This document shows, one piece after another, positions 31,101 to 64,000 of a DNA stretch of 64,000 bases. The notes under the pieces were generated by a model, which saw only the letters and a program-made list of their open reading frames with translations, was not told the DNA's origin and did not search any database. Location of the stretch: NCBI GenBank assembly GCA_046563655.1, contig CM102285.1, forward strand, positions 5,456,001-5,520,000. The letters are read 5' to 3'. This stretch comes from Yuukianura sp. NJ FZ-2021 (Eukaryota). Position numbers and translations under genes: made by a program. Every line of letters begins with the position of its first letter. The first letter of the stretch is position 1.

Positions 31101-34100
31101 ACGTTTGTAAATTTAAAATCGCATTGCTAGTACCTAAATTACTTGCGAGGAGTTGAACACTCAAACATAGGTTCTTTGGGTTCAGCCGAGTTTGAAGTCT
31201 GACAAGGGCTTTACGAGCTGTCGCAAATTTTAACTGTAACATTGCGTGGTCATTCATCGTAAATCGCACAGTGTTTACTGAAGTTTAACAATGTAAACAA
31301 ACCTCCTTCACAACATACTGGAATTTATATATCAATTTGACTAATACTATACAACGTGGATATATATATATATTTAGTTAATAATTGCGCTCAAACATAA
31401 TTCTTGTCAAGCATCATTTGATACATGACACGTAATAATTCAGAGCATATACGAACGTTTGTAGATTTAAAATCGCATTGCCAGTACCTAAGTTACTTGC
31501 GAGGAGTTGAACACTCAAACATAGGTTCTTTGGGTTCAGCCGAGTTTGAAGTCTGACAAGGGCTATACGAGCCGTCGCAAATTTTAACTGTAACATTGCG
31601 TGGTCATTCATCGTAAATCGCACAGTGTTTACTGAAGTTGAACAATGTAAACAAACCTCCTTCACAACATACTGGAATTTATATATCAATTTGACTAATA
31701 CTATACAACGTGGATATTTATATATTTTTAGTTAATAATTGCGCTCAAACATAATTCTTGTCAAGCATCATTTGATACATGACACGTAATAATTTAGAGC
31801 ATATACGAACGTTTGTAGATTTAAAATCGCATTGCTAGTACCTAAGTTACTTGCGAGGAGTTGAACACTCAAACATAGGTTCTTTGGGTTCAGCCGAGTT
31901 TGAAGTCTGACAAGGGCTTTACGAGCTGTCGCAAATTTTAACTGTAACATTGCGTGGTCATTCATCGTAAATCGCACAGTGTTTACTGAAGTTTAACAAT
32001 GTAAACAAACCTCCTTCACAACATACTGGAATTTATATATCAATTTGACTAATACTATACAACGTGGATATATATATATTTTTAGTTAATAATTGCGCTC
32101 AAACATAATTTTTGTCAAGCATCATTTGATACATGACACGTAATAATTCAGAGCATATACGAACGTTTGTAAATTTAAAATCGCATTGCTAGTACCTAAA
32201 TTACTTGCGAGGAGTTGAACACTCAAACATAGGTTCTTTGGGTTCAGCCGAGTTTGAAGTCTGACAAGGGCTTTACGAGCTGTCGCAAATTTTAACTGTA
32301 ACATTGCGTGGTCGTTCATCGTAAATCGCACAGTGTTTACTGAAGTTTAACAATGTAAACAAACCTCCTTCACAACATACTGGAATTTATATATCAATTT
32401 GACTAATACTATACAACGTGGATATATATATATTTTTAGTTAATAATTGCGCTCAAACATAATTTTTGTCAAGCATCATTTGATACATGACACGTAATAA
32501 TTCAGAGCATATACGAACGTTTGTAAATTTAAAATCGAATTGCTAGTACCTAAATTACTTGCGAGGAGTTGAACACTCAAACATAGGTTCTTTGGGTTCA
32601 GCCGAGTTTGAAGTCTGACAAGGGCTTTACGAGCTGTCGCAAATTTTAACTGTAACATTGCGTGGTCATTCATCGTAAATCGCACAGTGTTTACTGAAGT
32701 TTAACAATGTAAACAAACCTCCTTCACAACATACTGGAATTTATATATCAATTTGACTAATACTATACAACGTGGATATATATATATTTTTAGTTAATAA
32801 TTGCGCTCAAACATAATTCTTGTCAAGCATCATTTGATACATGACACGTAATAATTCAGAGCATATACGAACGTTTGTAGATTTAAAATCGCATTGCTAG
32901 TACCTAAGTTACTTGCGAGGAGTTGAACACTCAAACATAGGTTCTTTGGGTTCAGCCGAGTTTGAAGTCTGACAAGGGCTTTACGAGCTGTCGCAAATTT
33001 TAACTGTAACATTGCGTGGTCATTCATCGTAAATCGCACAGTGTTTACTGAAGTTTAACAATGTAAACAAACCTCCTTCACAACATACTGGAATTTATAT
33101 ATCAATTTGACTAATACTATACAACGTGGATATATATATATTTTTAGTTAATAATTGCGCTCAAACATAATTTTTGTCAAGCATCATTTGATACATGACA
33201 CGTAATAATTCAGAGCATATACGAACGTTTGTAAATTTAAAATCGAATTGCTAGTACCTAAATTACTTGCGAGGAGTTGAACACTCAAACATAGGTTCTT
33301 TGGGTTCAGCCGAGTTTGAAGTCTGACAAGGGCTTTACGAGCTGTCGCAAATTTTAACTGTAACATTGCGTGGTCATTCATCGTAAATCGCACAGTGTTT
33401 ACTGAAGTTTAACAATGTAAACAAACCTCCTTCACAACATACTGGAATTTATATATCAATTTGACTAATACTATACAACGTGGATATATATATATTTTTA
33501 GTTAATAATTGCGCTCAAACATAATTCTTGTCAAGCATCATTTGATACATGACACGTAATAATTCAGAGCATATACGAACGTTTGTAGATTTAAAATCGC
33601 ATTGCTAGTACCTAAGTTACTTGCGAGGAGTTGAACACTCAAACATAGGTTCTTTGGGTTCAGCCGAGTTTGAAGTCTGACAAGGGCTTTACGAGCTGTC
33701 GCAAATTTTAACTGTAACATTGCGTGGTCATTCATCGTAAATCGCACAGTGTTTACTGAAGTTTAACAATGTAAACAAACCTCCTTCACAACATACTGGA
33801 ATTTATATATCAATTTGACTAATACTATACAACGTGGATATATATATATTTTTAGTTAATAATTGCGCTCAAACATAATTTTTGTCAAGCATCATTTGAT
33901 ACATGACACGTAATAATTCAGAGCATATACGAACGTTTGTAAATTTAAAATCGCATTGCTAGTACCTAAATTACTTGCGAGGAGTTGAACACTCAAACAT
34001 AGGTTCTTTGGGTTCAGCCGAGTTTGAAGTCTGACAAGGGCTTTACGAGCTGTCGCAAATTTTAACTGTAACATTGCGTGGTCATTCATCGTAAATCGCA

Positions 34101-37100
34101 CAGTGTTTACTGAAGTTTAACAATGTAAACAAACCTCCTTCACAACATACTGGAATTTATATATCAATTTGACTAATACTATACAACGTGGATATATATA
34201 TATATTTAGTTAATAATTGCGCTCAAACATAATTCTTGTCAAGCATCATTTGATACATGACACGTAATAATTCAGAGCATATACGAACGTTTGTAGATTT
34301 AAAATCGCATTGCCAGTACCTAAGTTACTTGCGAGGAGTTGAACACTCAAACATAGGTTCTTTGGGTTCAGCCGAGTTTGAAGTCTGACAAGGGCTATAC
34401 GAGCCGTCGCAAATTTTAACTGTAACATTGCGTGGTCATTCATCGTAAATCGCACAGTGTTTACTGAAGTTGAACAATGTAAACAAACCTCCTTCACAAC
34501 ATACTGGAATTTATATATCAATTTGACTAATACTATACAACGTGGATATTTATATATTTTTAGTTAATAATTGCGCTCAAACATAATTCTTGTCAAGCAT
34601 CATTTGATACATGACACGTAATAATTTAGAGCATATACGAACGTTTGTAGATTTAAAATCGCATTGCTAGTACCTAAGTTACTTGCGAGGAGTTGAACAC
34701 TCAAACATAGGTTCTTTGGGTTCAGCCGAGTTTGAAGTCTGACAAGGGCTTTACGAGCTGTCGCAAATTTTAACTGTAACATTGCGTGGTCATTCATCGT
34801 AAATCGCACAGTGTTTACTGAAGTTTAACAATGTAAACAAACCTCCTTCACAACATACTGGAATTTATATATCAATTTGACTAATACTATACAACGTGGA
34901 TATATATATATTTTTAGTTAATAATTGCGCTCAAACATAATTTTTGTCAAGCATCATTTGATACATGACACGTAATAATTCAGAGCATATACGAACGTTT
35001 GTAAATTTAAAATCGCATTGCTAGTACCTAAATTACTTGCGAGGAGTTGAACACTCAAACATAGGTTCTTTGGGTTCAGCCGAGTTTGAAGTCTGACAAG
35101 GGCTTTACGAGCTGTCGCAAATTTTAACTGTAACATTGCGTGGTCGTTCATCGTAAATCGCACAGTGTTTACTGAAGTTTAACAATGTAAACAAACCTCC
35201 TTCACAACATACTGGAATTTATATATCAATTTGACTAATACTATACAACGTGGATATATATATATTTTTAGTTAATAATTGCGCTCAAACATAATTTTTG
35301 TCAAGCATCATTTGATACATGACACGTAATAATTCAGAGCATATACGAACGTTTGTAAATTTAAAATCGAATTGCTAGTACCTAAATTACTTGCGAGGAG
35401 TTGAACACTCAAACATAGGTTCTTTGGGTTCAGCCGAGTTTGAAGTCTGACAAGGGCTTTACGAGCTGTCGCAAATTTTAACTGTAACATTGCGTGGTCA
35501 TTCATCGTAAATCGCACAGTGTTTACTGAAGTTTAACAATGTAAACAAACCTCCTTCACAACATACTGGAATTTATATATCAATTTGACTAATACTATAC
35601 AACGTGGATATATATATATTTTTAGTTAATAATTGCGCTCAAACATAATTCTTGTCAAGCATCATTTGATACATGACACGTAATAATTCAGAGCATATAC
35701 GAACGTTTGTAGATTTAAAATCGCATTGCTAGTACCTAAGTTACTTGCGAGGAGTTGAACACTCAAACATAGGTTCTTTGGGTTCAGCCGAGTTTGAAGT
35801 CTGACAAGGGCTTTACGAGCTGTCGCAAATTTTAACTGTAACATTGCGTGGTCATTCATCGTAAATCGCACAGTGTTTACTGAAGTTTAACAATGTAAAC
35901 AAACCTCCTTCACAACATACTGGAATTTATATATCAATTTGACTAATACTATACAACGTGGATATATATATATTTTTAGTTAATAATTGCGCTCAAACAT
36001 AATTTTTGTCAAGCATCATTTGATACATGACACGTAATAATTCAGAGCATATACGAACGTTTGTAAATTTAAAATCGCATTGCTAGTACCTAAATTACTT
36101 GCGAGGAGTTGAACACTCAAACATAGGTTCTTTGGGTTCAGCCGAGTTTGAAGTCTGACAAGGGCTTTACGAGCTGTCGGAAATTTTAACTGTAACATTG
36201 CGTGGTCATTCATCGTAAATCGCACAGTGTTTACTGAAGTTTAACAATGTAAACAAACCTCCTTCACAACATACTGGAATTTATATATCAATTTGACTAA
36301 TACTATACAACGTGGATATATATATATTTTTAGTTAATAATTGCGCTCAAACATAATTCTTGTCAAGCATCATTTGATACATGACACGTAATAATTCAGA
36401 GCATATACGAACGTTTGTAGATTTAAAATCGCATTGCCAGTACCTAAGTTACTTGCGAGGAGTTGAACACTCAAACATAGGTTCTTTGGGTTCAGCCGAG
36501 TTTGAAGTCTGACAAGGGCTATACGAGCCGTCGCAAATTTTAACTGTAACATTGCGTGGTCATTCATCGTAAATCGCACAGTGTTTACTGAAGTTTAACA
36601 ATGTAAACAAACCTCCTTCACACCATACTGGAATTTATATATCAATTTGACTAATACTATACAACGTGAATATATATATATATATATTTTTAGTTAATAA
36701 TTGCGCTCAAACATAATTCTTGTCAAGCATCATTTGATACATGACACGTAATAATTCAGAGCATATACGAACGTTTGTAGATTTAAAATAGCATTGCTAG
36801 TACCTAAATTACTTGCGAGGAGTTGAACACTTAAACATAGGTTCTTTGGGTTCAGCCGAGTTTGAAGTCTGACAAGGGCTTTACGAGCTGTCGCAAATTT
36901 TAACTGTAACATTGCGTGGTCATTCATCGTAAATCGCACAGTGTTTACTGAAGTTTAACAATGTAAACAAACCTCCTTCACAACATACTGGAATTTATAT
37001 ATCAATTTGACTAATACTATACAACGTGGATATATATATATTTTTAGTTAATAATTGCGCTCAAACATAATTTTTGTCAAGCATCATTTGATACATGACA

Positions 37101-45050: not shown

Positions 45051-45224
45051 ATAAGCCTCAAAACCAAAAGAACGGATACTTGTTATTTAAGAACCAAGTG
45101 TTTTTTGTTATTTAGCTAAGCGGAGACGAAAGCTGTTGTTTGAGGTAGGTAGAGGCAATGAGATTTAATATTCTTTCACATCGCTTAAACCTTCATCGTT
45201 ATGTTTATTAATGTGCTTACATAA

Positions 45225-48088
45225 ATGTCCAGGTTAATGGAAATGGCTGTATCAAAAGTCGTCTGCGCAATTTGCCTGAAAAACTCTACAACAACTCCAA
45301 GGCCGACTGTTCAACGAAGAACTAGAAATTCAAAGTCAACTACTAACGATTCGTGGGAATCGGTTTGGACGGAAAGCTGTGCAGAATCAGTTTGCAAGTT
45401 ATTAGACCTTCAGTTGGATATATTTAAGGAATACTTTGTCACAAGTCAGCAGTGTTCCTCTTGCAAACAATTACTAAGGGACGTGGATTTTGTAATTCGA
45501 AGCATGGACGCCATGGACATAAAACTTTCCCAGTTGAGGGTGAAACTTGCGGGGTTAATGTATGAAACTATTCAAATGTGGACGGATGAAAGTACTGAGC
45601 CAGAGAACAGGGCATCACGATCTATGGAAAACGCTATAGAAAGCTCCGCGGTTAAATACGACGATGAGGAAAGCATTTGTGCAGGTAACGTATGAATCTA
45701 GAGGCGTAAAAGTGGACTTGAAATCTGCTAAAACAAGTCAATTAAAATTTCTTTTTTAAAAAAAAGGCTCCTTCATCCTGGACTCCGATTTAAAAGTATT
45801 CTCTGAAATAACGGTTGAAGGGGAGTTCGAATCGGTACCGGACCTTCAACCAACGGATGTATCTCAAATTCAGCCAGATTCTATTTCATGTCAAACCGAT
45901 CATCTAGAGTCGATTGAATACTCTGAAGCGAGCCATAAGGATGGGCCAGAAAATCCACCATCAGTTGAAAGTTAGTACGATGACATTTCATAAGGTTCAA
46001 TTACCAAATCAAAAATCAATTCTAATTTCGATTGTTCTGTTTTGTTAATGGTCAATCCGAAAAATGATTTTTATGATAGAGTCTACCCCCAAGGAAATGA
46101 ATGAGAACTCCTGTACACGTTTAAGTAATCGAATTCGAAAACCAGTCCAATATCGAGAAGATACTGACGAAGAAGGAAGCAGCGAAGACCCTGATGCTGG
46201 TTGGTTTGAATTAAAACTATAAATTTTTATTTATATTAGCAACTTGTGTTTAACCTCAACTAATTATATATGTATACCTACTGCACAGGTTCTGACATCG
46301 AAGAGCAGCCCACATCAAACGTCAAGAGAAAATCGGGTACTGTAAATAGTGCAGCTATGTCAAAGCGCTGTAGGATTTCTGCTCCTCGTGGCATTTCTGC
46401 AAGCAATATCCATCAAAAAAGTATAACGAATGCAGATCCTGAATATGTTTTGAGCTGTCAGGAAGGTCCAGAATTTGGTGATGGATTTTTGAGTGAATTT
46501 GAAACAGACGCTGAAGATACAAGTCAATCTCAGATGAATCCCCAAATCAAACCAATAGCCAACAGTACTAAGCGTCAAGCTACTCCGTCTGAAATTTTGG
46601 TACAAAAGTTACAAGATGCCGAAGAGGTAATAGAAGAAGCTGTTGCAGAAAGACATTTTGCACCTGTAGTTCAAAATGGAACCACAACCAAAATAAAACG
46701 GAAACACAGGACGAAAGTAGTAAATAGCATTTCGTGCTCTCCGTTTCATAGTCTTACTTCCGAACTGCCAGCTCATGAAAATGCGGAACTACTCAGCACG
46801 ATGCAATTTCTAATGGAACTGGAGCAGGAGGACACCGAGAAGAATTATACATTTATTTGTCCAAGTACTTACTGTGGCCGTCGTTTCATTGGCTTTCGTG
46901 AGCTCCGGCGTCATCATTTGAAAGAACATAGCCAGCATCTTTTCCCCTATGAGTTTCAGTGCCCATTTTGTGATCATTACGTACAGTTTGATTACATGTT
47001 GGATGCCCATATTATCCGTGTGCACCAAGAACAAAAGCACGGATACATTTGTCCGGCATTGGATTGTGACATGACATTCGCCTCCAACAGAAGGTTGGTT
47101 CGTCATGCGTCTTACCATCATCCGGAAATATTGCTAAATAGAAATGACTGCAGTTATAGAGCTCAGTATCGAGACAAGTCGTTGGTTGGTTCTTCCGAAG
47201 CTGTGTTGGTGCAGAGAGCTGATCGTTCTTTTACGTCCCGACGAATGACCTATTGCCCAGTTGAAGGATGTTCGGTGCGGTGTTGCTCGCAATTTCAGAT
47301 GGACAGACATTACAACAAAGACCATGTCAAAGATCCATTTCCCTACAAATGTACTGAACTAGACTGTACGAAAGCGTTCAAAGTGGAGAATGCCCTGTCT
47401 CGGCACATGGCTACAATCCATGGAATTACTGGGAAAGGAACACTGCTCAATTGCCTTTTCTGTCATTATCGATGTCTTGGCCAAAGCAGCATGAATCAAC
47501 ACATGCGTACCGCACACCACAAAAATGACGCTCCAAAATTTTACTGCAAAGTTTGCAACTTACTATTCTTTGCTACAGAGCATTGCGAAGAACATGAAAA
47601 ATTGCATGATGACAAAGGATACGATTGCGTGATTTCCCAATGCAAAACTAAACGGTTTTCTCATCGTGAAGAACTTGTTGCCCATGTCAAATGTGAACAT
47701 TACGGTAATTACCGTAAGAAGTATATTTGCTCCACTTGCGGAAAGGCGGTGAAGACGGCATACTTATTAAAAGCACATGTGGCAGTACATAGTAGTGATC
47801 TCCCTTTTAAGTGCAACTACTGCGACAAAGGTTTCCGAAACACTATGAATCGAACAAGCCATGAAGAAATAATGCATGGAGATCCACTGCAGAAAAAGCT
47901 ACAATTGCAAACTCTGCACTGCTACTTTTACAGCTCGCCAGTACTTATACAAACACAATGCGTGGCATAAGCATGGGGCCAATGCCAATTTGCCAGTCGC
48001 TAGGAAAAAACTAAGGAACCTGGAGGTGGAAGATGTCGTAGAAGCATCGGAAAAGCCGAAAAGACAATTAAGGTCCAACACAGCATAA
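45225..48088 (+). CDS. Multi-C2H2 zinc-finger protein with N-terminal ZAD-like C4 domain. Exons 45225-45684, 45767-45970, 46080-46199, 46289-end. Frameshift at ~47895
   Basis: VCAIC...CSSC N-terminus, acidic linker and about 10 C2H2 fingers in the 46270 ORF. One more finger (YNCKLCTATFTARQYLYKHNAWH) lies in the shifted frame ending at 48088. Confidence 0.85.
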
Positions 48089-50478
48089 AAATGTTGAAAA
48101 ATATTTTGTAACCGCAAGAATCCAAGCTTGCCGGAAGTCTGTCACCACCATGTACACAGGAATCGATGAATCGGCGGGCTTCGTCTTACAATTCACCGGA
48201 AACAAAAAATTCTGAAGTGACTTAAGCTTATGCTTTCAAATAACTTGGTTTCAGCTAACTTTTAGTAAATTAGATTGTTTTTAATGAACCTACTTGCCTT
48301 ATAGCATTCTATTTTGTGGTAATATCTAATTCATCTGATTATATTTTTATGCTCTGAAGCAGGAATTTTGTAATTGCAGAGCAGACCAATTTTCTTAAGG
48401 GAATTTAATTCAAATTCAAACTAATTATCAAATTACCTGAAAGAATTGTATAGTACAACGTGTAGACAAAATTTCACGATATTTATTAAAGCGGGGAGAC
48501 AATGTGCATATTAACAATTAAAATGTTTGTACTCTTTGGACATTTAAACCAGTATTACATTTATATTAATTAGCTTTATTTTATTCTATCTATTACTTCT
48601 ATTAACTTGAATTAATAAATCTGACCCCTTTCACGGTTTGGTTTTTAACATTTTTATTTGCTTCGGAGTTAAAGAACACAGTGGAAGAGTTTTGTAAGAC
48701 GTTTGAACCCCTACACCTTTTTAAAGGTTATTGAAAGTATCCTGCCAGGAAAAAATCCGAATTTTTGTACTTTAGAATTAGGAAGCTGGCGTTCAAGTAA
48801 TACTCAGCTCAATGTATTACCCGGAAATTACTACGCCTATATTTCGTTTGGTAATGCAGGCATAAGGAAAGTGTGATTGATATTTTAGAAATAAAGTCAG
48901 GAAACGTATTCGGAATTGGAAATTGACTGACTAGAGTTCCTGATTTGTTTCTTCTGTTACAAAACAAAAAGAAATGATCGGTGTACAACAGCAAAGGTTT
49001 AGGGGTTTGAAGATGTCCTGACGTAAATATTCCCGCTTACACAAACGCCCGCCAAAGGTTCAAAAAAATGTACTTCGAGTATATTTGAATGACCTCTAAG
49101 ACAGTCAGACGCAGTTCTACACAATTTCAAACTGCGTAATCCTTTTCTGTCGAAACAATTACCACAGGAAAAGTGTTTTAAACTTCTCTCTGTTCATTTT
49201 TTTTTTGCCACGCACCACGACATGTAAACGCCATGATTAGTTTTTGCAGATGGCTTAAATATTTTCAAAGTGAATAGCGTTTAAACTTAAGATCACAGTG
49301 CGTGTGTGCAGGAGTCTACAATACACGAGGATGCCGGATTAAACGGGGGTCAAGGTACGACAGAGCAACATAAGTAAATGAACCCGCAGATTTCTGCCTC
49401 AAGAAAATGAGCGCATCACAGCCGGTAGTGTTTGAATTAATGTACATACACATGCGTTTTGAGCATGTGCTTTACTATGTTGACTTAATTGGGAGAGTGT
49501 ACTGCAGATGTAACAGATTAGGTACATGGGTTTCATTTCCATAATTAAACGTTAGATAGACCTAGCAAATCAACTTTATGTCAGGAATATTTTGAAGGAA
49601 ATGGGAATTGACTAAATCGTATTGTAACCGCCCAGACGCAGAGGCGTATAGCTTTAAACGTGTCGGTAATGCTGAATGATAAGTGCGGTGTTACCATCCC
49701 TGCCTTTCTATTCTATTATGTACGTAATCACACACGCCGCAAACGCAATACGGCAACATTGCAGCTTCTCGCAGGCAACAACCACACGTGATACTCCTGC
49801 TTTACATGGCAAAACTGTATTCGGTATCTATTCTAGATTCAATTAGACGGCAATTTTTAACTCCTGCAATAATTATTGTAAATACCTGTTTAACAATGCT
49901 ACGTCAAGACGTAATCAGTTTGTACCACAGTATGTTGACAAGGTTCCTATACAAATGAAATAATTTTCGTTTAACAGGTTAGACAATAAGTCCCCTTTCC
50001 CAGAAGTTTCGCTGCAAAAAAACACCCCCCCCCCCCATCCTTTGAAGTTGTTTATGGCCCTTTTTGTGCTAAAACCAAACTGGAGGTTCAAAATGAAGAA
50101 AATAAAAATTTGGAGCAAGAATTCCCAAGGAAACTAGAGTTGCCGTTATGCCCTTTAATTTTTGAAATTTCGAGGAGTAAACCATACAAAACCGACTTAT
50201 TGCCTAAGATGTTAAGGAAAAAACTATTTCTTTGTTTACAAACCTTGGTTAACGGGTGAAAATAGGGCAACATTGTCCATACTTATTCTCGACACTTGGT
50301 CGAGTATTGGTTTCTATATTGCGTTTCCGCCGTGTTTACATACATAAGTGTTCAGCATCCTGTTGACACTGTTCGATCCATCCATAGATAGTTACAATTG
50401 CTGCTGACTCTGTGCACTGGTTTAGAGTTTTCCCATCAAATATCAAGAGCGCTATGCATTACGTTTTAATTGTTGTTA

Positions 50479-50486
50479 TGAGGTAG
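50479..50486 (-). promoter_or_regulatory. let-7 8mer seed match (CUACCUCA) in the putative chinmo 3' UTR
   Basis: + strand TGAGGTAG equals let-7 nt 1-8. The UTR extent is not demonstrated. Confidence 0.55.
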
Positions 50487-50631
50487 ATTTTGGGTATTAA
50501 CGGTTTAAGATGACACGAGTATGAAAATATTACATCTCAGATCCCGCTGAGAGAGGCTCAGAAACACAGAACTTGGAGGTAAAGCTATAATGTATAATCT
50601 GTTTTGAACTATCGGTAAATTATTTCTAAAT

Positions 50632-50640
50632 TCCCTGAGA
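50632..50640 (-). promoter_or_regulatory. miR-125 8mer+1 seed match (UCUCAGGGA) in the putative chinmo 3' UTR
   Basis: + strand TCCCTGAGA equals miR-125 nt 1-9. Confidence 0.55.
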
Positions 50641-52943
50641 GTTATATCCCTGCACTCATTAAAATCACAATTAAATCTAATACACCTTTATCATGCAATT
50701 TCTACTGTACTTACCTCTAAATTTAAGATACATTACAACACTAAACACTATAACAAACATCAAGCTCTTGAATACCCCATTCTTATGTACCTGAATGTTT
50801 ATGTCTACCGTCTCCATGCAGAAGTTAGCAATTCTTCCAGTTTCCTACACTTATCGTTTCTAGTATTTCCCACTCCGAAATAAAATACCCTACCAACCAG
50901 GTTTGTACTATAGTACTAAATAATGTTAACAATTATATCTTGATCGTTTACATCTAAACATTAACATTTCAAGATTTGAACGCCACATGAAACTTAACAA
51001 ATGTTAACGATCTAATAATAATTCTTGGTTAATAACCGACTATTAGGTTTTAAATTTAACCTCCTTTTCAGTTCCTACTTAACAACGGAAACCTAGTTTG
51101 TACAATTTTTCCATTTGTAGAAGAACTCTATCAATCTAATTTACTACTAATCCCTGTTATACACTAATGCCAATGCTCAGAATTGCCAACTCAAAATGTA
51201 GTAATTATGCCAACATAAATAAATTTTTAACGTGTAGTGTAATGTGTCATTGGTTGAGAGGGTTTGTAGCATCAACATAAACGCAGCCGCAGCGCATGTT
51301 AAAACGTGTTGAGCGAGATGGGGCGTCATTTCCACGAAATGTTGTTTTTATAAAACACACCTAATAATTTTTGCTGCATTCTTATGACCAATGAGGTGAT
51401 TCTGCATATTTACCTAAACAACACATCGGCTCTGCTTTGTCAGAATTGATTAAATTTTACGTTTCTAGCAATTCGATTGCAATTTATTCTGCGTTTCTGC
51501 GTTTCAGCTTGGCCTAACCTCAACCGGGAACACTGAACAAACATCAACGGAAGGAGTTAACAGCATTGAACATAAAAAGTCAACTAACATTGGTCAAATT
51601 CCTACGAACGGAGCAAAGGTATGAGATAGTGGGCCATTACCTACCACTAACGTGATCCCATGCCATTTCAGGGAATGTGAAAACAGTATACTGTACTGTA
51701 CTACGCAAAAAAAACAGGTATTGCAACTGGGTGGCTGCAGTAGCTACAAATTATCCTTACTTTAGCTGTAATCCGTTGAATTCGAACTGAAATTTTTTTG
51801 AATTTACTTTTTAGGCAATTCATCTGAGATGAACTCACTTGGAGGAATTTCCTTAATTGTTCAATTGCCGAGTGAGTTATCGTACTCTGAGCTTTCGCGT
51901 TCAGTAATTTCGACCAATTGTTCATTAGCATGAATTTCACTTCGGTACAAGTAATTTGTTTGGCGAACATTTTGGTTTTCGAATTATGTTATGTTTTTGT
52001 TTGGTTACATCCCAATCTCGATGGAATGGAAACTAAAGACGGATTTTTTTTTAAATTGCTGGCCATGTTTGCGATATTGTTAGGTTAGGTTAACCATCAA
52101 AAATAATGCGCTTGGATGAATCTTTTTATCTAGTAGTTAGAAATGAAGTAACTCCTCCGTCGACTGTTACTGCGGACTGTGTTGGAGTTAAGGGACGAAG
52201 TACTTGTTTTTCCTACCAGTTGGGATTCAAAACATTTTAAAGTTAGCGTTGTGTAGAAGCTGTAGCACCATTGCACCCTCCTAGATCACCAATCTGAAGG
52301 TTATTGATGAAAACATACGGCGTTTTACAACCAGTTTGCTGTAAATGAAGAGACTACAACCTTAACGAACCTTAAAAAACATGCTTGCCTCTGAGCTTAA
52401 AAACTAAATTGTCTACAAACACTTAAATTTTTCAAGTATAAAGTATGCAGTGCCTGTGTCGTATCAAAATTTGAACACAACTTGAGCGGGATATTGATGT
52501 TGGAAGTAGTGTTATTATAGGGAAAGGTAGTTTCATGGTAATTCCTGAGGCGGTGAGAGGCATATTGTAAAATTAACTTTCTGTAACAGTGAGACTCTGG
52601 TTAAGAATTATAAGTTTTAAACTGCGTCATCTTCTATAGTACCCGTGTCAAATTCATAATTTTGTTATAATACCCAGTTAACAGCATTTTCTCAACTAAA
52701 GTGTGCAGGTTACCAGTTCCATATATCAAAGTATTCAATACTAAAAGTTTTGCAGTTTCGTTTCCCATTTGGTTCACCGAATCCCTACAAAAACTTACTA
52801 CATATACATGTATATAACTTTGACGACTTCACTATAAATTTTACCTTTGGTATAACTTTGGCCTAAGCCAAGTGATTGTAGTTGTTGTACAGATTTTTTG
52901 AATGAACGAAGGGGGTCCATTTCGTCTGAAGAAAAGCGATATG

Positions 52944-55900
52944 TCAGTCCACCCCTTTGCCACCCCCTGAGGAACTTCGAGAGCTTGGACGATTAGATGG
53001 ACTGTGACCAGAAGCAGGGAGGCCATGACTGTGATGACTTTGTGCGGAACCACCGCCTACGACGTTGGATCCTCCGGAATTGTTACCCGGACTGCCCTGA
53101 CTGGGACTGCTTCCAGAGGAGCCATTGTTCCCTGTTCGCGGAGGACTCGGAAACGTAGGTCCAGTTGGGGCTAATGGGTCTTGAGCCATATGCGGGAACG
53201 ATCTCACCCCGACGCCGCCCAGGAGTGCCCGATGCTCTCTGGCTACGTGTCTTCGAACTGTATTGTTCCTTGTAAAGGTACGAGTACAAAACGGGCAAGG
53301 AACTCGAATTCCTTGATGTCTTTGCCGAATATGGGCCCTTAGGTTTGTCTCGTATCCATACAAACGCTCACAGAACGGACATTTCAGTTTCTTTCCTGTT
53401 GAAACCAAAATATATAATGCTTCGGTTTCTATGTAAATAAATTGAGAGAAAGTAAGGAAAATGTTTCGGTTTCTATGTACTAAATAAATTGAGAGAAAAG
53501 TAAGTAAATACATTGGCTGCCTATCCTAACCTAAGCGTGAAGATATCGTAACGGCAAACGCGGTGACACGGCAGTATTATTATAGCGTGCAATTATAAAT
53601 TATGACATATACGTTGTGATGCGAGGTGTACCTAAATATTGTGTAAAGGTAAGCACTTAAGGGAAATAGCAGCAGGTGAAATGGCCAAAACAATTTGGCC
53701 AAAAGTGAAATGGTCAGAGGTGAAAAGGCCAGAAGTGAAATGGCCAAAAACTGAAAAGGCCAAAATGTAAAAACGCCAGAAAAGAAATGACCAAAAAGTT
53801 AAAACGCCAAAAAGTGAAAAGACCAAAAAATGGGCTGGCCAAAATTTGAACAGACCAGAAAGTGAAATTGCCAAAATAGTAAAAGACCAGAAAGTTAAAA
53901 GATCAGAATTAGGGGAAAAAAATTATTTTCAGTGGGTAACTCGGATTTTCTTCACTTTTTTTTCACAAATTACTACCTATGACCCCCTTGTCCATGAACA
54001 TATATTTCTTGGCTTGTCCTGAGAATTTATTAGATTTTTCAGAAAATTTCGAAAATAGGAAATATTCCATGGAATACATGCTAACCTTTTTTTTAAATCC
54101 AATGTTTTGAAACAACAAAAACTAACCTCAAGGCTACTATAGCAACATTGTTTGAGCACTTAAAAATGCAACTAAACTTAACAAACCATAATCGAAAACC
54201 TATTTTGAGAAAAAATTGTGCCTTATGGGGAAATTGCAATTTTCAAAATATTCTACAAATTCGAAATTTTTTGTGAGCGGGCCAAACAATATATGCTCAT
54301 GGTCAGGGGGTCATAGGTTTTTGTAAAAAAAAAAATAAAAAAAAAAAAGTGAAGAAAATCCGAGTTACCCACTGAAAGTAAATTTTTTTTCCTAATTCTG
54401 ATCTTTTAACTTTCTGACCTTTTATTATTTTGGCCATTTCACTTTCTGTTTTTTTTTTGTTTTTTTTTTGTTTTGAAATTTTGGCCATTCCGCTTGTTGG
54501 CGTTTTCACTTTTAGGCCATTTCAATTCTGATCTTTTCACTTTTTGGCCATTTCACTTCTGGCCTTTTCACCTCTCATCATTTCACTTCGAAATTGTTTT
54601 GGCCAATTCACATGGAATCAAGGGAAATATGGTACGGAAGTTAATACATACTAATACAATTATTACAGTACATTTTCTAAATAAGCAACTAACACCCTCA
54701 AACCTTTCTCCATTTCTTTGCCATAAGACCTCAGTGCGGCCTTAAAGGAAGCCTCACTGAGGCCCATGACAAGAATTGGAGAAAAGGGCTGAGGTTTTTA
54801 TGGTTAGTTACCTAATGCAACAGCTAACCTAAACCTGTAGAATGGGTATTTTAATGGGATTTCAAGCAGTTCCGAGAGAAGTGTTAATAAAGAATTCCGT
54901 TTCTAAGTATCGAAATATTTTGAAATACATTTGGCTAAACATTTTCTCAAGTGGATATATTTTCACAAGCCTTACCGTCCGCAGTCGTTTGTGTATGGTT
55001 AAGATCATGGGACTGAGCATGTTGGGCAGAAATAGAAGATGGTGAAGGTAGTGGCCAGACATTGGTCGAAGGTGGCCCTACAGAAGCTCCGAGTCCGGTT
55101 CCAAACGACTGTGCTTCGCATGGAGACAAATCCATCGAAAAACTTCGCTGCTTGTCGTTCAATCCAATGGCCCCAACCTCGTCATCTCTTCCTACTTCCA
55201 GCTTTATACTGAGATCTGCCAATAAATGTTAAATTATCCTTCCGTATTTAAAACATGTATTTCGTAAATATTATAGGAATGTACCTTCTGGCATAGTATT
55301 TTCAGTACTTGCACTTCGGAATTTACGTAAGTTTGCATTCTCAGATATTACAATAGTTTGTTGCTGTTGATGAGACTGCATCGGAGCCGGTTGAGGACCA
55401 CTTGTAGGAACCCCCGAAGATGGAGCATAGTGTGACCCAGCAAAGGAACCAAAACTCCCGTGTTGCACCATATTCTGCCTGTCAATTAACATATAATGAA
55501 CAGTTTGTTACTGGCATTACGTTAGTTATTTTATAATTATTTAAAAGTTAAGGTTTTGTACGTGCGCGTGCAATTTCTTTTACTAAAAACCGGCAAGCTG
55601 TGCTGTTCCAGCGAGGTTTGGCTTATTTGAAAAAAAAATTGAAAAAAGCGAAAATTTATAAATTCAATTTAAAAAACCGACTGTTTACCGATTTTCCTAT
55701 ATTTTGTGCCGGTATTTATATAATATTCAAACAATTTAGTGGATTGTATACTAAATTTTATGCTCTTCCTAATGAGAGCTTAAGAGTGCCGCACTGAGAA
55801 GCGTTCTTGGATCTAAGATTTATGCTTTGAAATGATTTCAAATTATATTTTGACATCATAACTTGTACCTACCTACCGTAAAACTACTATTATTAACTTG

Positions 55901-58900
55901 TTCATAAATTTGAACTTATGTCCTTTCATACCTTTCTCGCAATTCCATCTCAAGCCTAATGGCTGGTGAAGGTGAAGGAAGTGGAGCTGAAGGTCTTGCG
56001 GGGTGATGCATCCCGATGTACTCCATTCCTTCACCTAACGTTCCGTTCGGACTCTCTCGGGGCGAGGACGGTGGAAATCTGTTCTTCTTTCTTAATTTGT
56101 CGTCGTACACTCCTGAAATAATAAAATTAATCGATGAAAAATAAACTATTAAGCTGGACTATTCGGTTGTCATTGTATAAAGAATGATTTGAATAAGCAG
56201 GGCAACGTTGTCCATCGGCGAACTGATAGACTCCTGTAAACTTACTGAATAATCGTAGTTGACACATGAAACTGACTGGATTGTAGTCAACGTTCTAGAC
56301 CAAGAAAATGTTCCTTCTACACTAGGTCTTCAAATAATTCAGGCCAACTTCCCTTTTTTAAAAGCGTGGAAACATTCCCCTTTTGAATGGTACGAACTTT
56401 TAAAGTTGCTTTTGTAAAATGGTTCCATGTCATAAACCGCCAAATCAAAAAGAGCCTATGCGAGAAGAGACTATGCCAAAAGAGCCGATTTCAAATAAAG
56501 CCTATTTCAAAAAGAGCCAGTTTCAAAAAGAGCGATTTGAAAACGAGCCGATTTAAACAAGGTAGGGCGATGCTCAAGGGTTGAGCATAGGTCTTCTGGA
56601 GGGAGTTGACAATTGATACGACTTAGACCGGGCGGCCGCGAAACCCGTGAATAGAAACGATAAAAAACCGTTTTCAGCAGATTCATGCACTGAAACGTCG
56701 CGTATAGTTTTCAGTGCGGATATGGGGGATGTTTTGTACACCGAATTGTCCAACAGCAAAAATAATAAAAAAAAAACCGTTCGCATTAAAATGTGGTAAA
56801 AATTGAGCTCTGCAAAACATTCATCCTGTTCAAAATTATTTTGCTGCACAATTGTTCTCAAACATGCACGTATTTTTACATAAAACGTCAATTACTCAGC
56901 GTCAAAAAATGACTGCGCAATTTTGTTAAATGCACAATATTATTGAACGTTGAGGGAAGGGATCAAATATCGTTTCTTTAGTATAAAAATTGGTTCATGT
57001 AAATGCACAATTTGTAGAATCAAGTACATAAGTTGTTGGGTCGAATGGTGCTTCTTAAAAATAAAAATGAAAATTTCCTGAGAAAGCAAATTTGAACCCT
57101 GCCAAGCACTGTTTACGTGTTACGAATTTAAGCTGGAATATCTAACCTCTAATTAGGCTTAATTTAACAACGTCATTAAACTAATTGTCAGAAAATGACC
57201 AGATCAAAACTTCGTTGTTAAAAATATTTTGAGTATAATGCAGACCTAACACACAAATTTTGACGACTTAAGAAACAGCAACGCGATGCAGCCGCAAAAC
57301 TTTGAGGTTGTTAGTGTAAGATTTTGAGTGCAATGTAGACCTAATCAAAACACTTCAGGCAAACATAACCCCCCGACTGCGATGGGGCTTATGTTTCAGT
57401 GGAAAGGGTCCTAAACAACAGGACACACGGACGGACAAAGTCGTGCCGTACTTAAATAAAAGTTGTGATTTGGCACAGCTAAAAGCTAAGAGTCTGTTTT
57501 CTCCAGGTACGATAGTTTTTGCATTAAAATTATATTCCTACCAACGAACTTAGAAGGATTTCACACCACACTCAATTACAACATAATGTTATATGCATTG
57601 CAATACCGGCTATCAACTGTTTTTGGGTAACTCTCAATTGAAGCGGTTATGTTGTGATTTGTTATGGCTATGAGTGTAATCTATTTTCTCCGGGTACGAG
57701 AGTTCTTACACTAAAATAATACTCCTACCACCGAACTTTAAAAGGATTTCAAACCTCGCTCAATTGCAAGATAATGTCACATGCCGTGCAATACCCAATA
57801 GTAGGTGGTTTAGAGTAACTGCTTAACTGAAGCTCTTTTGTTTTGATATGGTACGGCTAAGAGTGTAAGTGTTTTCTCCGGGTACGACAGTTTTTACAAT
57901 AAAATAATATTCCTACAACTAAACTTTAAAAGGATTCCTCACCTCACTCAATTACAAGATAATGTCACATGCCGTGCAATACCCGCTATCAACTGTTTTT
58001 GGAATGCTCTCAATTGAAGCGGTTAATTTGTGATTTGGTACAGCTAAGAGTGTAATCTGTTTTCTCCGGGTACGACAGTTCTTACACTAAAATAATATTC
58101 TTACCACCGAACTTTAAAAAGATTTCACACCTCGCTCAATTGCAAGATAATGTTACATGCCGTGCAATACCCGATAGTAGGTGGTTTAGAGTAACTGCTT
58201 AATTGAAGCGCTTTTGTTGTGATTTGGTATGGCTAAGAGTGTAATCTACTTTCTCCGGATACGGCAGTTTTAACATTAAAATTATATTTCTACCACAGAA
58301 CTTTAAAAGGATTTCTCACCTCACTCAATTACAAGATAATGTTATATGCATTAATGCATTGCGATACCCGCTATCAACTGTTTTTGGGTAACTCTCAATT
58401 GAAGCGGTTATGTTGTGATTTGGTATGGCTAAGAGTGTAATCTGTTTTCTCCGAGTACGACAGTTTTTACACTAAAATAATATTCCTACCACCGAACACT
58501 AAAAGGATTTCACACCTCACTCAATTACAAGATAACGTTATATGCATTGCAATACCCGCTATCAACTGTTTTTGGAATACTCTAAATTGAAGCGGTTAGT
58601 TTGTGATTTGGTACAGCTAAGAGTGTAATCTGTTTTCTCCGGGTACGACAGTTCTTACACTAAAATAATATTCTTACCACCGAACTTTAAAAAGATTTCA
58701 CCCCTCGCTCATTCAGAATTTTTTGCTACTGTAACTCGTTGCAGTTGAAATCAATATTGACCAATATTTTTCAACACATTTTAAAACAAAAACAAGGTAG
58801 GGCGATGCTCAAGGGTTGAGCATAGGTCTTCTGGAGGGAGTTGACAATTGATACGATATTTAGACTGGCCTACCGCGAAACTGTGGACAAACTGAGAAAC

Positions 58901-61900
58901 AGTTTTCATGGAGGTGAAGCTCTAAAACGTCGCTGAAAATTTTCAGTGGGAATATGAGATCTTATATTGTGCATGAGTTGCACCAAAATTGTCTTGGTAA
59001 TTTTACCGTTTAATTGAACCAAAATCATGTTAAAGTTTTGAGGCCCAAAATATCTGCATTGAATTGATGTTGTTAATTTGGTGTGCACAAAATGCACAAA
59101 ATTGAAAGTTAAGAAGAAGGTGGTCCAATATCGTTCTTGATTCATGTACTTCATTTGTTGAGGAAGATGCACATAATGTATTGTCGATGTTGTCATGGCA
59201 ATGCTCTTTACGAATTGTTACGAATTGTTACGACTTTAAGCCGGAATTTTTACCCCCTGACAAGGTTTAATTTAACAACGTAATTAAACATGCTGCCAGA
59301 AAATGACCAGTTCAAAACTCCGTTGTTTATAAATGCTTTGAGTGCAATCGAAACCAAAACAGTTTTGCGAAGCCACGATACTGCGGGTACGTAAAGTAGC
59401 CGCCCACTTCTACGTTGTTAATGTACGACTTTGAGTGCAATGTAGACCTACTGAAAACTCTTGAGCCATACATAACCCCCCGTCAATAATGAGCTAATGT
59501 TTCAGTGGAAAGGGTACTAAAAAACGTTACAGACGGACGGACGGACAAAGTCGTATCAATAGTCTTCTTCAGCACGTCGTAGACGTGCGTCTCCAGAAGA
59601 CTAAAAGCGTCGCGCTGGTGCGAATTTGTGCCCCTCAACATATTTGCTCAGAGAGTCGACCAAAATTGTGTTGTTTCCAATTTTTCGCTAATTTTAACAA
59701 ACATATCGATAAAATCGCTATAACAAGGTAGGGCAATGCTCAGGGGTTGAGCATAGGTCTTCTGGAGGGAGTTGAAAATTGATACGGCTTTTAGACCGGC
59801 TGTCCGCAAACCCGTCGAAGAGAAACGTTAAGAAACTGTTTTTATTAGATTTATGCAACGAAACGTCGCTCATAACTTTCAGTGCAGATGTGGGGCCTTC
59901 TTGTGCACAATTGCACCAAAACGTGAAAAAACCGTTTGCATCAAAATGTTTTTCAACTTTAAACAGTTTTCACTCCCTTCAAAATTATTTTGCTGCACCC
60001 AAATATGCACTGATTTAGACATCACAACGGCCAACACCCTGCGTCAAAATAACTGCACAATTTTACATTGATGTGCAATAAGTGTGCAACATGCACAAAA
60101 TTGAACGTTGAAGAAAGGGTGTCGAATATCGTTTCTTTACGCTGAATTTATACTTTTACCTTTTCCATTTCCGTTCCTCTTCCATTCCCGTTCCTTTCCA
60201 TTACGAATGCATTGTTGTCATCCATACTACAATTGCATTCCAGTACCATTTCCATGACAGTACCATTCCGTTTTCTATTTCATCGAGCATTCTGGCTGAA
60301 AAGTATGGATGGTTCCGTCGATGCACAAATTGAAATTGCACATTTTTCGTAGTTCTCTTTAGCGTTGGTGCATTTGTGCAAATTTAATTTGGCATAGCAA
60401 CCCGCTTTTCATCGGTCGTTCCATTGAAGGAATAGAACTGAGTTGAATGGCACGATGTCACTGGCATGGCAATGGAATGCAACAGGAACGGAAATGCATT
60501 TCCATTTCACTTCCATTCCATCATCGTTCCTCATGGAAACCACGAAGCAACGATGGAAAACAAGTATGGATCGTGAAAATGGAAAATGGAATGGAATGCA
60601 ACGAGAATGGAACGGGAAAACCACGAAGTATATGGATTCAGCGTTAGAACCAAAATCGGTTCAAATAAATGCACCATGTGTTATTAAGTGCATAAGTTAT
60701 AGGGTCGAATATCGTACTTAAAGTCAAAATTATAAAAATTTCTTGTAAACGCAAATTTAAACCTGTCATGCCTTGTTCACATGTTACACATTTAAGCCGG
60801 ATTTTATACACTCTAAGAAGCCCAAATTTAACAACGTAAATAAACATACTGTCAGAAAATGACCAGATCAAAACTGCGTTCTTAAAAAATATTTTGAGTA
60901 TAATGCAGACCTAACACAAAAATTTTGAGGACTTAAGAAGCAGGTACGTAATGTGGCCGGCAATTCTTACGTTGTTAATTTATGTCTTTGAGTAGAATGT
61001 AGACCAACTAAAAACATTTGTGCTGTACATGACCCCCCAAACAGAATGGGGCTTATGTTTTAGTGCAAAGAGTCCTAAAAAATCAGACGGACGGACAAAG
61101 TCGTATCAATAGTCTTCTTCAGCATGTCGTAGACATGCGTCTTCAGAAGACTAAAAAGGTAGGGCAGTGCTCAAGGGTTGAGCATAGGTCTTCTGGAGGG
61201 AGTTGACAATTGATACGACATTTAGACCGGCCTACCGCAAAACTGTAGACGAATTGAAAAACCGTTTTCATGGAATTGAAGTTTTAAAAGTCGCTGAAAA
61301 TTTTCAGTGCCAATATGCGAATAATTGTGTTGGCAATTTTACCGTTTAATTGAACCAAAATGATGTTAAAGTTTTGAGGCGAAAAATATCTGCACTGAAT
61401 TGATGTTGTTAATTTGGTGTGCACTAAATGCACAAAATTGAACGTTTTGCAGAAGGGGTCGAATATCGTTCTTGATTGATATTATTAATTTGTTGAGGAA
61501 GATGCACATAATGTATTGTCGATGTTGTCATGGCAATGCTCAAGGTAGTTCTCAAACGTTCATTGCATCATGCACAAAATTGAACGTTGAGGAAGGGTGT
61601 CGAATAACCCTTGTTTAAATCCAAAATTATAAAAATTTCTTGTGAATGCAACCTGGAATACTGCCAAGCGCTGTTTACATATTATGAATTTAAGCCGGAT
61701 TTTCTACACTCTAACTAGGCTTAATTTAACAACGCAATTAAAGTAACTGTCAGAAAATGACCAGATCAAAATTTCGTTGTTTAAATAAATTTTGAGTGTA
61801 ATCGAAACCAAACAAATTCGGCGAGCCACGATACTGCGGATACGTGAAGTAGCCGCTAACTTCTACGTTGTTAATATAACACTTTGAGTGCAACGTAGAC

Positions 61901-64000
61901 GTACTGAAAACACTTGAGCCATACGTCACCCCCCGAACAGAATGGGGCTTATGTTTTAGTGCAAAGAGTCCTAAAAAATATGACAGACAGACGGACGGAC
62001 AAAGTCGTATCAATAGTCTTCTTCAGCATTTCGTAGACATGCGTCTCCAGGAGACTAAAAAGCATGAATTTCGAAATAAAATAAAAGTTCGAATTTACTA
62101 CGAACGGATTTTGAAAAACGTCCTAAAATAATGGAGCAATATGGTGAGGTTTATGTTGCCTATTTTTTGCTTGAAATTTCCCATATTCTAAAGTTTCAGA
62201 TTTAACGGAAATGAATTTGGACTCTGATTGGACTATTTGACTCTTTGGACTAGATTTTAAGAAACTTTTTTATTTTTGTCACTACATACCAATTGGTTAA
62301 GGATATATGAGACTTATTCCTTATTCGTTAGACCTTTCGTTCGTAGTAATTTCGGATACTTGTTATATTTCGAAATTCGTGCTTTTTGAAATCGGCTCTT
62401 TTTGAAGTAGACTCTTTCTGAAACTGGCTCTTTTCGCATAGGCTCTTTTTAAAATTGGCTCTTATGGCATCGGCTCTTTTGCCATAGATTCTTTTCGAAC
62501 TTGGCTCTTTTTGACTGGCTCTTAGGGCATAGGCTCTTTTTGATTTGGCTGTTATGACCTGCTACGTTGTAAATTAATCGTTTTTGTAACAGTACAGATT
62601 TCGTCCAAATAAACATGGTTTCCATAAAACTCAAACATGTTAAATTTAACTTTTAGTATTAATCGATTTGGCTCTATAGTTCAGCGAACAGCAAAATTGT
62701 TGAGCTTGTTTTACGTTTACGTTTACCGCGTTTGTTACGGCTAGCGTTGAAGATGGAAAAAGAAATAAGCTGACCTGTGGATGTGTTGATTGTATTTGGC
62801 GGTGAGCGAGACGGGGAACGTGGTGAAAAAGAGTTTGGAGATTGGACACAGTTTGTATTTTTGTTCTGAAGAGGGATGTGGTGCTGTGTGATGTGAGGTG
62901 TGGGCGGTTGCTGCTGAGATGGGATCAGCAGGGGCCTTAGCGCTTGAGCTAGTAGAGGATCTTGTGCTGGCGGTGCGTCGGTGCTGCCTGACAATACAAA
63001 TCCGTGTTTCGGATCTGTACTACACATCGGCAGACTGCTTCCACCAGGAACCCGTTCGTCAATATCACCGGAGATACTATGCAGGTCATTTTGGGAGAGA
63101 GAAAGTCCTTTAACCTGCAAAGAAATCAGCAGCCATTAACGTTACAAAACGTGGTTGCTAGTTTACCTATAGACATAGTAAGTGTAAGAAGTAAATATAA
63201 GTAAATGTTACTGTATTTCTTTCAGGGGTATGCGCTATGGTTTATCAGATTCAACATGTGTTTGTATCTGTCGTGATCTTTGTGCGGGACGTACTACCAA
63301 GTTCAACTGCGACTACCAGGTGTACTGCCACTGAAATGTAACTTCAGAGAGAGCGTGTACAGTGTACACTGTACACTGTATTAGAGTGAAAACCGAAAAG
63401 ACGTCGGCGGTTTTCATTCGCGTCAATATGCAAGGAATTATTTATTGTAATGGGTTTAGAATTTTTTTTGGAGAGTTATCTTTCAGGGCCGTTTGGAGGC
63501 AAAAGTTATCTAACAATAAAAGTTCACCATCGTACCGAGTGTATTTACCGCTGTTCTATACAGACTCTTTTTTAGGAGTCGTGTTTCCTTGATGGTTCAA
63601 TACCATTGCTTCGAATAGAAATGTTTCGAACCGAATTGTTGACAACAGCTCGGCTTTCAAGTTTCAATAACAATTGTGAGTCAAATACCATGTCAAATAG
63701 TTACTGCCTGTTCTTCCTCTCAATGCGATTTTAGGAGATGATAGTTTATATATTATTTACTTCTGTGATACGGTACATACCTGAAGCCTCTTGGCGGTTT
63801 GAAGAAATGTGTTGAGATTGGCGTCGTCAATGTAGACTTCACCTTTGTACATAAATTCGAGCAAAGCCCTAAGATTAGCCGCCAGTGTTCCGTCCAAGAT
63901 TACCACCAGATTTTGAGCCGTGGAGCACTGCTCGAATAGCTCTTGGAAATGGACACTGCTTGCTGCCAAAACGACGCGGTGAGCTCGGTAGCTCTCACCT
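52944..64000 (-). CDS. chinmo: BTB-zinc finger transcription factor Chinmo (5' end beyond the window). Exons >64000-63781, 63114-62775, 56112-55932, 55478-55285, 55215-54976, 53395-52944
   Basis: BTB: YRAHRVVLAA...VVILDGT...NLRALLEFMYKGEV...AKRLQ|VKGLS. The C2H2 pair KKLKCPFCERLYGYETNLRAHIRQRHQGIRVPCPFCTRTFTRNNTVRRHVAREH is recognised as the Chinmo finger pair. All junctions are GT-AG and phase-compatible. Confidence 0.9.
53668..54619. mobile_element. Foldback element with asymmetric ends and 15-bp subterminal arrays, in the last chinmo intron
   Basis: Ends AGCAGCAGGT...ACATGGAATC. AAAAGTGAAATGGCC-type arrays are inverted on the two arms. TSD AAGGGAAAT(A) at 53659 and 54620. Confidence 0.85.
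56556..57444 (-). mobile_element. HINE family A copy 1 (5'-truncated)
   Basis: AACAAGGTAGGGCGATGCTCAAGGGTTGAGCATAGGTCTTCTGGAG (3' hairpin plus subTIR) through to GGACGGACAAAGTCGT. Confidence 0.8.
57462..58711. repeat. 188-bp tandem array, ~6.6 diverged copies
   Basis: TTCTCCGGGTACGA-like motif at 57501, 57688, 57876, 58064, 58253, 58449 and 58637. Confidence 0.92.
58791..59606 (-). mobile_element. HINE family A copy 2 (complete)
   Basis: Both subTIRs (GTCTTCTGGAG / CTCCAGAAGAC), the (GGAC)n microsatellite, the 3' hairpin and A/T-run flanks are present. Confidence 0.85.
59722..61155 (-). mobile_element. HINE family A copy 3, interrupted by a TTCCA-rich foldback (60139-60644)
   Basis: Same ends as copy 2. 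The insert has ACGCTGAAT...ATTCAGCGT ends and TTCCA/TGGAA inverted arrays. Confidence 0.8.
61156..62061 (-). mobile_element. HINE family A copy 4
   Basis: AAGGTAGGGCAGTGCTCAAGGGTTGAGCAT...CTCCAGGAGACTAAAAA. It abuts copy 3 and its interior resembles copy 2. Confidence 0.85.

Follow-up and report, generated by a model that had tools for sequence, protein, structure and literature searches.

Putative target sites of let-7 and miR-125 behind the chinmo gene of a likely springtail, and the possible age of let-7 control

Springtails are primitively wingless and lack metamorphosis. In the window, meaning here the whole stretch of 64,000 nucleotides that was analysed, one let-7 and one miR-125 8mer are found behind a chinmo gene, and a preliminary description supposed that the wiring by which these microRNAs repress chinmo in Drosophila exists here too. 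The questions raised by the locus are whether the two words are target sites lying in a chinmo 3' UTR, and how old such a control may be.

The chinmo gene, the two 8mers and the candidate host microRNAs

The chinmo gene lies on the minus strand. The last coding exon (52944-53395), delimited by its open reading frame and by a splice acceptor read from the sequence, and matched by Pfam zf-C2H2, encodes two C2H2 fingers followed by a low-complexity tail, and ends with a TGA stop at 52944-52946. It is preceded by two middle coding exons separated by a short intron (54965-55492, approximate; about 48-51% identity to Orchesella and Folsomia chinmo in tblastn), by the exon following the BTB domain (62827-63120, also approximate and from tblastn) and by the second BTB exon (63766-63999; 87-90% identity in tblastn). 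The first BTB exon and the ATG are located about 410-525 nt beyond the window end, according to tblastn and to the translation of L041. The chinmo proteins of Folsomia and Orchesella map in exon order, from BTB to fingers, with 87-95% identity at the BTB exons and 77-80% at the finger exon. The best three of 254 homologues are 'zinc finger protein chinmo' of Allacma, Orchesella and Folsomia, and the named matches among the 120 listed of these 254 are mostly chinmo. The gene features an N-terminal BTB domain and two C-terminal C2H2 fingers, as a chinmo orthologue does, this being judged by similarity rather than by a tree; on the same ground the host is most likely a springtail. The earlier assignment of the gene to chinmo of a non-holometabolous lineage agrees with springtail proteins being the best named matches. 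Several repeats fill the chinmo intron at 56500-62600, among them a tandem array of short units near 57500-58750; a miR-125 7mer-m8 falls within the last chinmo codons (52965-52971, minus strand). Elsewhere the window hosts four identical 105-aa frames spaced by 1062, 1062 and 2832 nt, that is, a long tandem repeat (29290-34563), a WD40 gene on the minus strand (7774-9050), which resembles Seh1, and a Snf7-family gene on the plus strand (15761-16477).

The let-7 8mer (50479-50486) reads CUACCUCA and the miR-125 8mer (50632-50640), extended by one position to pair with nt 1-9 of the microRNA, reads UCUCAGGGA, both on the minus strand. Identified by motif scan, they are located at +2458 to +2465 and at +2305 to +2312 from the chinmo stop, respectively. 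Both have the make-up of canonical sites: on the mRNA strand they match seed nt 2-8 and carry an A facing nt 1, and the seeds are identical to those of the host's own candidate hairpins. The site flanks are AU-rich (67-75%). The let-7 site is predicted to be accessible both in the window and in the related locus L003 (97th percentile), and the miR-125 site to be poorly accessible (15th percentile). According to duplex prediction, nt 9-13 of the host let-7 could also pair at the let-7 site, past a 4-nt target bulge.

Two further motifs had been described along with the 8mers, and all four are present at the positions reported, on the chinmo coding strand. The let-7 6mer UACCUC (50576-50581, minus strand) is indeed found by motif scan between the 8mers, but the matching place in L003 lacks the word, so that it was rejected as a conserved site and is regarded as minor or incidental. 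The match to miR-100 nt 1-11 (49381-49391, minus strand) is similarly there, but includes a G:U pair inside the seed, and the word is absent from L003. Moreover, the host miR-100 candidate differs from nt 9 on, featuring AAA at nt 9-11, and the 11-nt match thus shrinks to a wobbled seed. It was rejected as a conserved site and judged incidental.

The two 8mers might be chance matches in intergenic DNA past the true end of the mRNA. In the 4,855 nt preceding the next gene, a second-order Markov model gives expectations of 0.058 for the let-7 and 0.055 for the miR-125 8mer, and a joint chance of about 0.003; rates derived from 368 kb of the genome's own DNA are 0.066 and 0.053, respectively. The two approaches agree with the preliminary estimate (about 0.07 per 8mer, about 0.005 for both). 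A second let-7 8mer is found at 45141-45148 (minus strand), 7.8 kb downstream of the chinmo stop, on the far side of the neighbour gene, and is probably there by chance. Since this word lies outside the UTR, chance by itself is not decisive, and the case is carried by conservation. No Rfam matches were found in the window, and the intergenic stretch showed no repeat similarity to the other DNA of the genome that was examined.

The genome hosts candidate hairpins for miR-100, for let-7 and for miR-125, clustered in this order on the same strand (G000:C4, 5901760, 5902093 and 5904086) as in the let-7-Complex circuit. Within the 90 kb examined around let-7, the miR-100 hairpin is found 333 nt before it, and the miR-125 hairpin 1,993 nt after it. 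The let-7 hairpin was identified with an E value of 7.9e-7 and a Rfam score of 46.5, versus a cut-off of 53.5. The cluster hairpins fold better than shuffles (z -4.6, -3.7 and -2.3). Rfam made no call for the miR-100 or the miR-125 hairpin, and these outer two are therefore candidates, identified by seed, fold and order; the 3' halves of both presumably differ from the usual sequences. An Rfam lin-4 search of the genome found no match anywhere, and the same was true for controls. Matches of the mir-10 family search were rejected as miR-100 or miR-125, being two Hox-type hairpins with another seed. The two mir-10-family hairpins, L044 and L045 (G000:C5), are located 23 kb apart on opposite strands, as we would expect for miR-10 and miR-993 in the Hox cluster. 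An AU-rich hairpin, nearly perfect and weakly matching several microRNA models, is found between let-7 and miR-125 (L036:3796-3868, G000:C4), and is possibly an extra cluster hairpin or a small inverted repeat.

Order of the sites in springtail-like relatives and probable extent of the 3' UTR

L003 is a springtail-like locus in which 30 of 55 third codon positions of the chinmo fingers differ from the window, and blastn of L003 versus the UTR of the window detects just four short matches. Global MAFFT alignment misplaced the site module; local alignment and exact-match chaining were used for the UTR comparison. L003 keeps a miR-100 site at +300, a miR-125 site at +2071 and a let-7 site at +2258, in unchanged order. 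The miR-125 site falls in an 11-nt exact match with L003 (+2070) and in a 10-nt match with a second springtail-like locus, L002 (+2021), and the let-7 site in an 11-nt exact match with L003 (+2255). The two 8mers are 145 nt apart in the window and 179 nt apart in L003. The miR-100 site is a 7mer-A1 (52640-52646, minus strand, +298), overlooked in the preliminary description and found by motif scan; its L003 counterpart lies within a 9-nt exact match. When 1,177 GC-matched 8-mers from +501 to +4400 were followed, 18 came up again in L003 no farther than 400 nt away, and 11 of the 18 belong to the site module; the background is about 1%. The comparison among related species proposed at the outset hence finds both 8mers kept in order in L003, well over this background. 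The positional match concerns one close relative, L003: in L002 the miR-125 8mer is at +2022 and the let-7 8mer at +4404, and the window-L002 collinear chain is not clearly over its control (59 versus 48).

Additional words are shared with L003. A miR-279-family 8mer (48928-48935, minus strand, +4009) is conserved at +3233, and its seed matches two hairpins of the host genome. A miR-2-family 7mer-m8 (49415-49421, minus strand) lies within the conserved chain described below. A 10-nt exact match at 52541-52550 (minus strand; +381 in L003) contains an offset miR-125 6mer, and a similar word of 11-13 nt is found in L002 at +2752.

Beyond +500, the words that window and L003 share exactly line up into a collinear chain of 24 blocks, scoring 110. 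As controls, the opposite strand scores 45, none of 60 permutations of the blocks exceeds 89, and 40 unrelated stretches stay at or below 66. The terminal block (48652-48800, minus strand), as aligned with L003, closes with an exact match of 16 nt, longer than any other in the comparison of the two UTR regions. This match includes AATAAA (48653-48658), a likely polyadenylation signal; 6 of 300 shuffles reached a 16-nt match anywhere. The downstream neighbour is a C2H2 gene in the window and a gene for an AMP-binding enzyme in L003, and because the neighbours differ the terminal block is best assigned to chinmo. As collinear islands reach a shared AATAAA despite the different neighbour, the simplest reading is that the chinmo 3' UTR probably spans about 4.3 kb (48630-52943, minus strand, the end being set by the L003 chain and the shared hexamer) and covers both 8mers. 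The neighbour in the window is a convergent multi-C2H2 gene on the plus strand (45225-48088). Its long frame ends at 47970, but the last finger-like stretch lies in another frame that stops at about 48088; this suggests a frameshift near 47890, either an assembly slip or a real lesion.

These data bear on the chance reading of the 8mers. It is favoured by the 5-6% likelihood of each 8mer in the interval and by the further let-7 8mer near 45142, but is largely refuted by ordered conservation over a background of about 1% taken together with the collinear chain, and is at odds with the enrichment in independent relatives reported in the next section. It is accordingly most improbable.

A different concern is raised by an earlier AATAAA at +1456 (51483-51488), unconserved and placed ahead of both 8mers, which could give rise to a shorter isoform; L003 has one at +1212. 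The sites may work only on a long, tissue-restricted (e.g. neural) isoform, the main mRNA ending early, for example at +1456, and escaping let-7 and miR-125. This would be a narrower variant of the best explanation. Few conserved islands are found from +600 to +1800, as such a variant would have it, and neural 3' UTR extensions are mentioned in the available text of PMC4979967. However, when the contexts of the +1456 and +1212 hexamers were compared no match was found, whereas the context of the distal AATAAA matches, and several spliced-looking contigs, copepod-like, extend 3.2-3.4 kb past the stop, reading through earlier AATAAA hexamers. Restriction to a long isoform is thus rather unlikely, and an mRNA extending to the distal signal is the reading retained here.

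Between the two 8mers local alignment detects a conserved 20-nt element (50536-50555, minus strand), identical to L003 at 19 of 20 positions. It features 6-bp self-complementary arms around a CNGGAU loop, the sole change in L003 falling at the free N position. A loop sequence of this kind between complementary arms matches the Smaug recognition element, given as a CNGGN0-3 loop in the available text of PMC4053848. Unlike a Smaug element, the 50536-50555 tract folds in this way in a short context only, and other pairings win in longer ones: the loop probability is 0.98 in a 28-nt context, 0-0.16 in six contexts of 44-164 nt and 0-0.84 in L003, averaging less than 0.3 in both window and L003. 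The tract was rejected as a Smaug element for its weak fold in the UTR context. CNGG hairpins are not in excess behind chinmo in the relatives. A Smaug-type CNGG hairpin with a folding probability of 0.99 is found in L002 at +3095, between the miR-125 and let-7 8mers of that locus.

Sites behind chinmo in wider relatives

At least 30 loci carrying a chinmo finger exon were identified in a scan of metagenome contigs. The 30 listed loci and the window fall into 18 clusters, one of which includes 12 of the 30, and the longest member was taken from each of the 13 clusters that reach 1,000 nt. The window was left out of this set, as were four short clusters (L021, L022, L023 and L031; 134-891 nt), none of which contains sites. 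Relatives were assigned by the best named match, 17 of the 30 listed loci having been tested. L002 and L003 are springtail-like, L004 is termite-like, L005 mayfly-like, L012 louse-like, L013 like another insect and L017 dipteran-like; the six other representatives are closest to Lepeophtheirus, and are denoted as copepod-like.

Among 65,536 words the let-7 8mer holds the first rank, being present in 11 of the 13 relatives, window excluded, versus 0.57 expected (p 3e-14, a value that overstates, as all p-values here, because the relatives are phylogenetically related and not independent). In antisense orientation it is found in none of the 13. let-7 7-8mers number 25 in hexapod-like loci (2.3 expected; 6 of 7 loci), seven of them corresponding to a tandem run in L013, and 15 in copepod-like loci (2.1 expected; 6 of 6). 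No let-7 7-8mer is found in the dipteran-like L017 (3.7 kb). The miR-125 8mer is found in 2 of 13 relatives, both springtails (p 0.07, rank 2218; ranks are not meaningful for 8mer words with zero occurrences). In hexapod-like loci there are six miR-125 7-8mers (2.1 expected; 3 of 7 loci), seven for miR-100 (1.2 expected; 5 of 7) and nine for miR-279 (1.5 expected; 5 of 7). Copepod-like loci have none, one and none, respectively, and as the expected counts are just 0.5-0.8 these absences are weak. The miR-100 7mer-A1 word ranks 5 of 16,384 (6 of 13 relatives versus 0.86 expected), and miR-2-family sites behind chinmo are not enriched in the relatives (6 versus 5.4 expected).

let-7 is thus conserved above background widely, miR-125 among the three springtail-like sequences and weakly beyond, and the miR-100 7mer-A1 is conserved as well. 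Of the paired sites first described, the deeply conserved one is that of let-7, the top word across hexapod-like and copepod-like relatives; miR-125 sites are found in hexapod-like loci only.

Of the 30 listed contigs, 16 look spliced, the frame being open across the intron position, and copepod-like ones are among them. The let-7 8mer follows the stop in 13 of these 16, which argues that the sites are transcribed in those animals.

The conserved islands might alternatively be DNA elements, such as a downstream enhancer, the seed matches being coincidental. This would account for conserved words that match no microRNA tested, such as the 20-nt element and some of the terminal block. Yet the strand bias is strict (the sense and antisense counts given above), conservation is centred on exact seed 8mers, the let-7 word is found again in lineages that cannot be aligned and in spliced transcripts, and the L003 chain ends at a sense AATAAA. 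Such an origin is therefore very unlikely, and microRNA target sites are the interpretation followed below.

Other repeated words were noticed in the relatives. In the insect-like L013, seven let-7 8mers follow one another in tandem over 210 nt, +647 to +858 past the chinmo stop. All six copepod-like UTRs (L014, L016, L027-L030) have one 8-nt word in common, presumably fitting a miR-14 site, and five copepod-like UTRs share another word near the stop.

Mechanism, age and comparison with known systems

The words are very likely real microRNA target sites in a springtail chinmo 3' UTR of about 4.3 kb, through which the cluster microRNAs would lower chinmo, let-7 being an old shared input. The chinmo mRNA would reach the conserved AATAAA near 48655 and contain all sites. 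Argonaute carrying the three cluster microRNAs would pair at the seeds, reducing stability and translation of the mRNA as in Drosophila. Once the cluster is switched on, Chinmo protein would drop in the cells expressing it, probably neurons or maturing tissue. let-7 would be an old input common to hexapods and copepods, the excess of miR-125, miR-100 and miR-279 sites being seen in hexapod-like loci only. At the sequence level the Drosophila-like wiring supposed in the preliminary description is sustained by the order in L003 and by the let-7 enrichment across relatives. A heterochronic (timing) role is extrapolated from flies.

Since let-7 sites are found behind chinmo in springtails and copepods, let-7 control of the gene probably predates insect metamorphosis. 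A wider scenario is tentative, and somewhat doubtful as a whole: let-7 control may be as old as chinmo, and hexapods may have added miR-125, miR-100 and miR-279, bringing all three cluster microRNAs onto springtail chinmo, in a juvenile-to-mature timer that existed before metamorphosis and was reused by insects to end the larval state. In the available text of PMC13449613, a 2026 survey, chinmo is tentatively dated to the copepod-hexapod ancestor, its role in copepods is said to await determination, and let-7 is unmentioned. chinmo has been proposed as a juvenile or larval master gene (PMC9169713 and PMC12848571, available text).

let-7 targeting may also be real and yet have arisen repeatedly, or serve adult neuronal maintenance, rather than derive from an ancient heterochronic circuit. 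No alignment of the sites is possible across copepods, springtails and insects, and gaining an 8mer is easy; still, let-7 sites in 12 of 13 sampled lineages are most simply explained by one origin followed by site turnover. As for timing, the available text of PMC4979967 has miR-125 acting on chinmo in ageing adult flies, but also let-7 as a developmental input. Whole-body chinmo mRNA is fairly constant through nymphal life in Oncopeltus (PMC12848571, available text), so that one cannot count on an off-switch acting throughout the body in animals other than holometabolans; control at the level of translation or in particular cells would escape such measurements. Repeated origin or a function other than timing is, on the whole, rather unlikely, and an old let-7 input is preferred.

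The mechanism is ordinary microRNA targeting, and the value of the finding lies in the implied age. Should springtails and copepods already possess the microRNA off-switch known from flies, the let-7 timer would have become linked to the juvenile gene before wings and metamorphosis arose. The mapped sites permit a direct test by few mutations in an animal without metamorphosis, and the conserved miR-100 and miR-279 sites are additional candidate inputs.

Repression of chinmo by the Drosophila let-7-Complex was reportedly described by Wu et al. in 2012, as known via citing papers. It is also stated in the available text of PMC4979967 and PMC7144073. The circuit is known in Drosophila, and what is new is its occurrence in other lineages. 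No report of let-7 sites in chinmo outside flies was found in the literature searched, which excluded subscription journals; such sites may appear in the supplements of PMC7144073 (Figure S2, on other insects) and Wu et al. 2012. That the wiring of let-7 and miR-125 to BTB-zinc-finger genes is old has already been suggested in print, and br-Z3 sites, possibly in other insects, are treated in the available text of PMC7144073. In that of PMC12064045, 15 sites in fly chinmo are predicted for a neuroblast module of microRNAs. Novel in the present analysis are the conservation of site order in two springtails, the probable end of the UTR, the host's candidate cluster, and the sites for miR-100 and miR-279.

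The springtail sites resemble canonical animal seed sites, as outlined in the available text of PMC6172730, in type, AU-rich flanks, conservation and predicted 3' UTR location; the same text ranks fly 3' UTR sites as 8mer > 7mer-m8 > 7mer-A1. Other BTB-zinc-finger genes co-targeted by let-7 and miR-125 represent the same kind of target, whereas here, in a basal hexapod, chinmo's orthologue is itself the gene targeted. With the Drosophila circuit the locus has in common the gene family, the cluster order, closely spaced canonical sites for let-7 and miR-125, and a long 3' UTR. In contrast, the available text of PMC4979967 and PMC7144073 reports no miR-100 site in fly chinmo and states conservation for Drosophila species, whereas the springtail gene features a conserved miR-100 7mer-A1.
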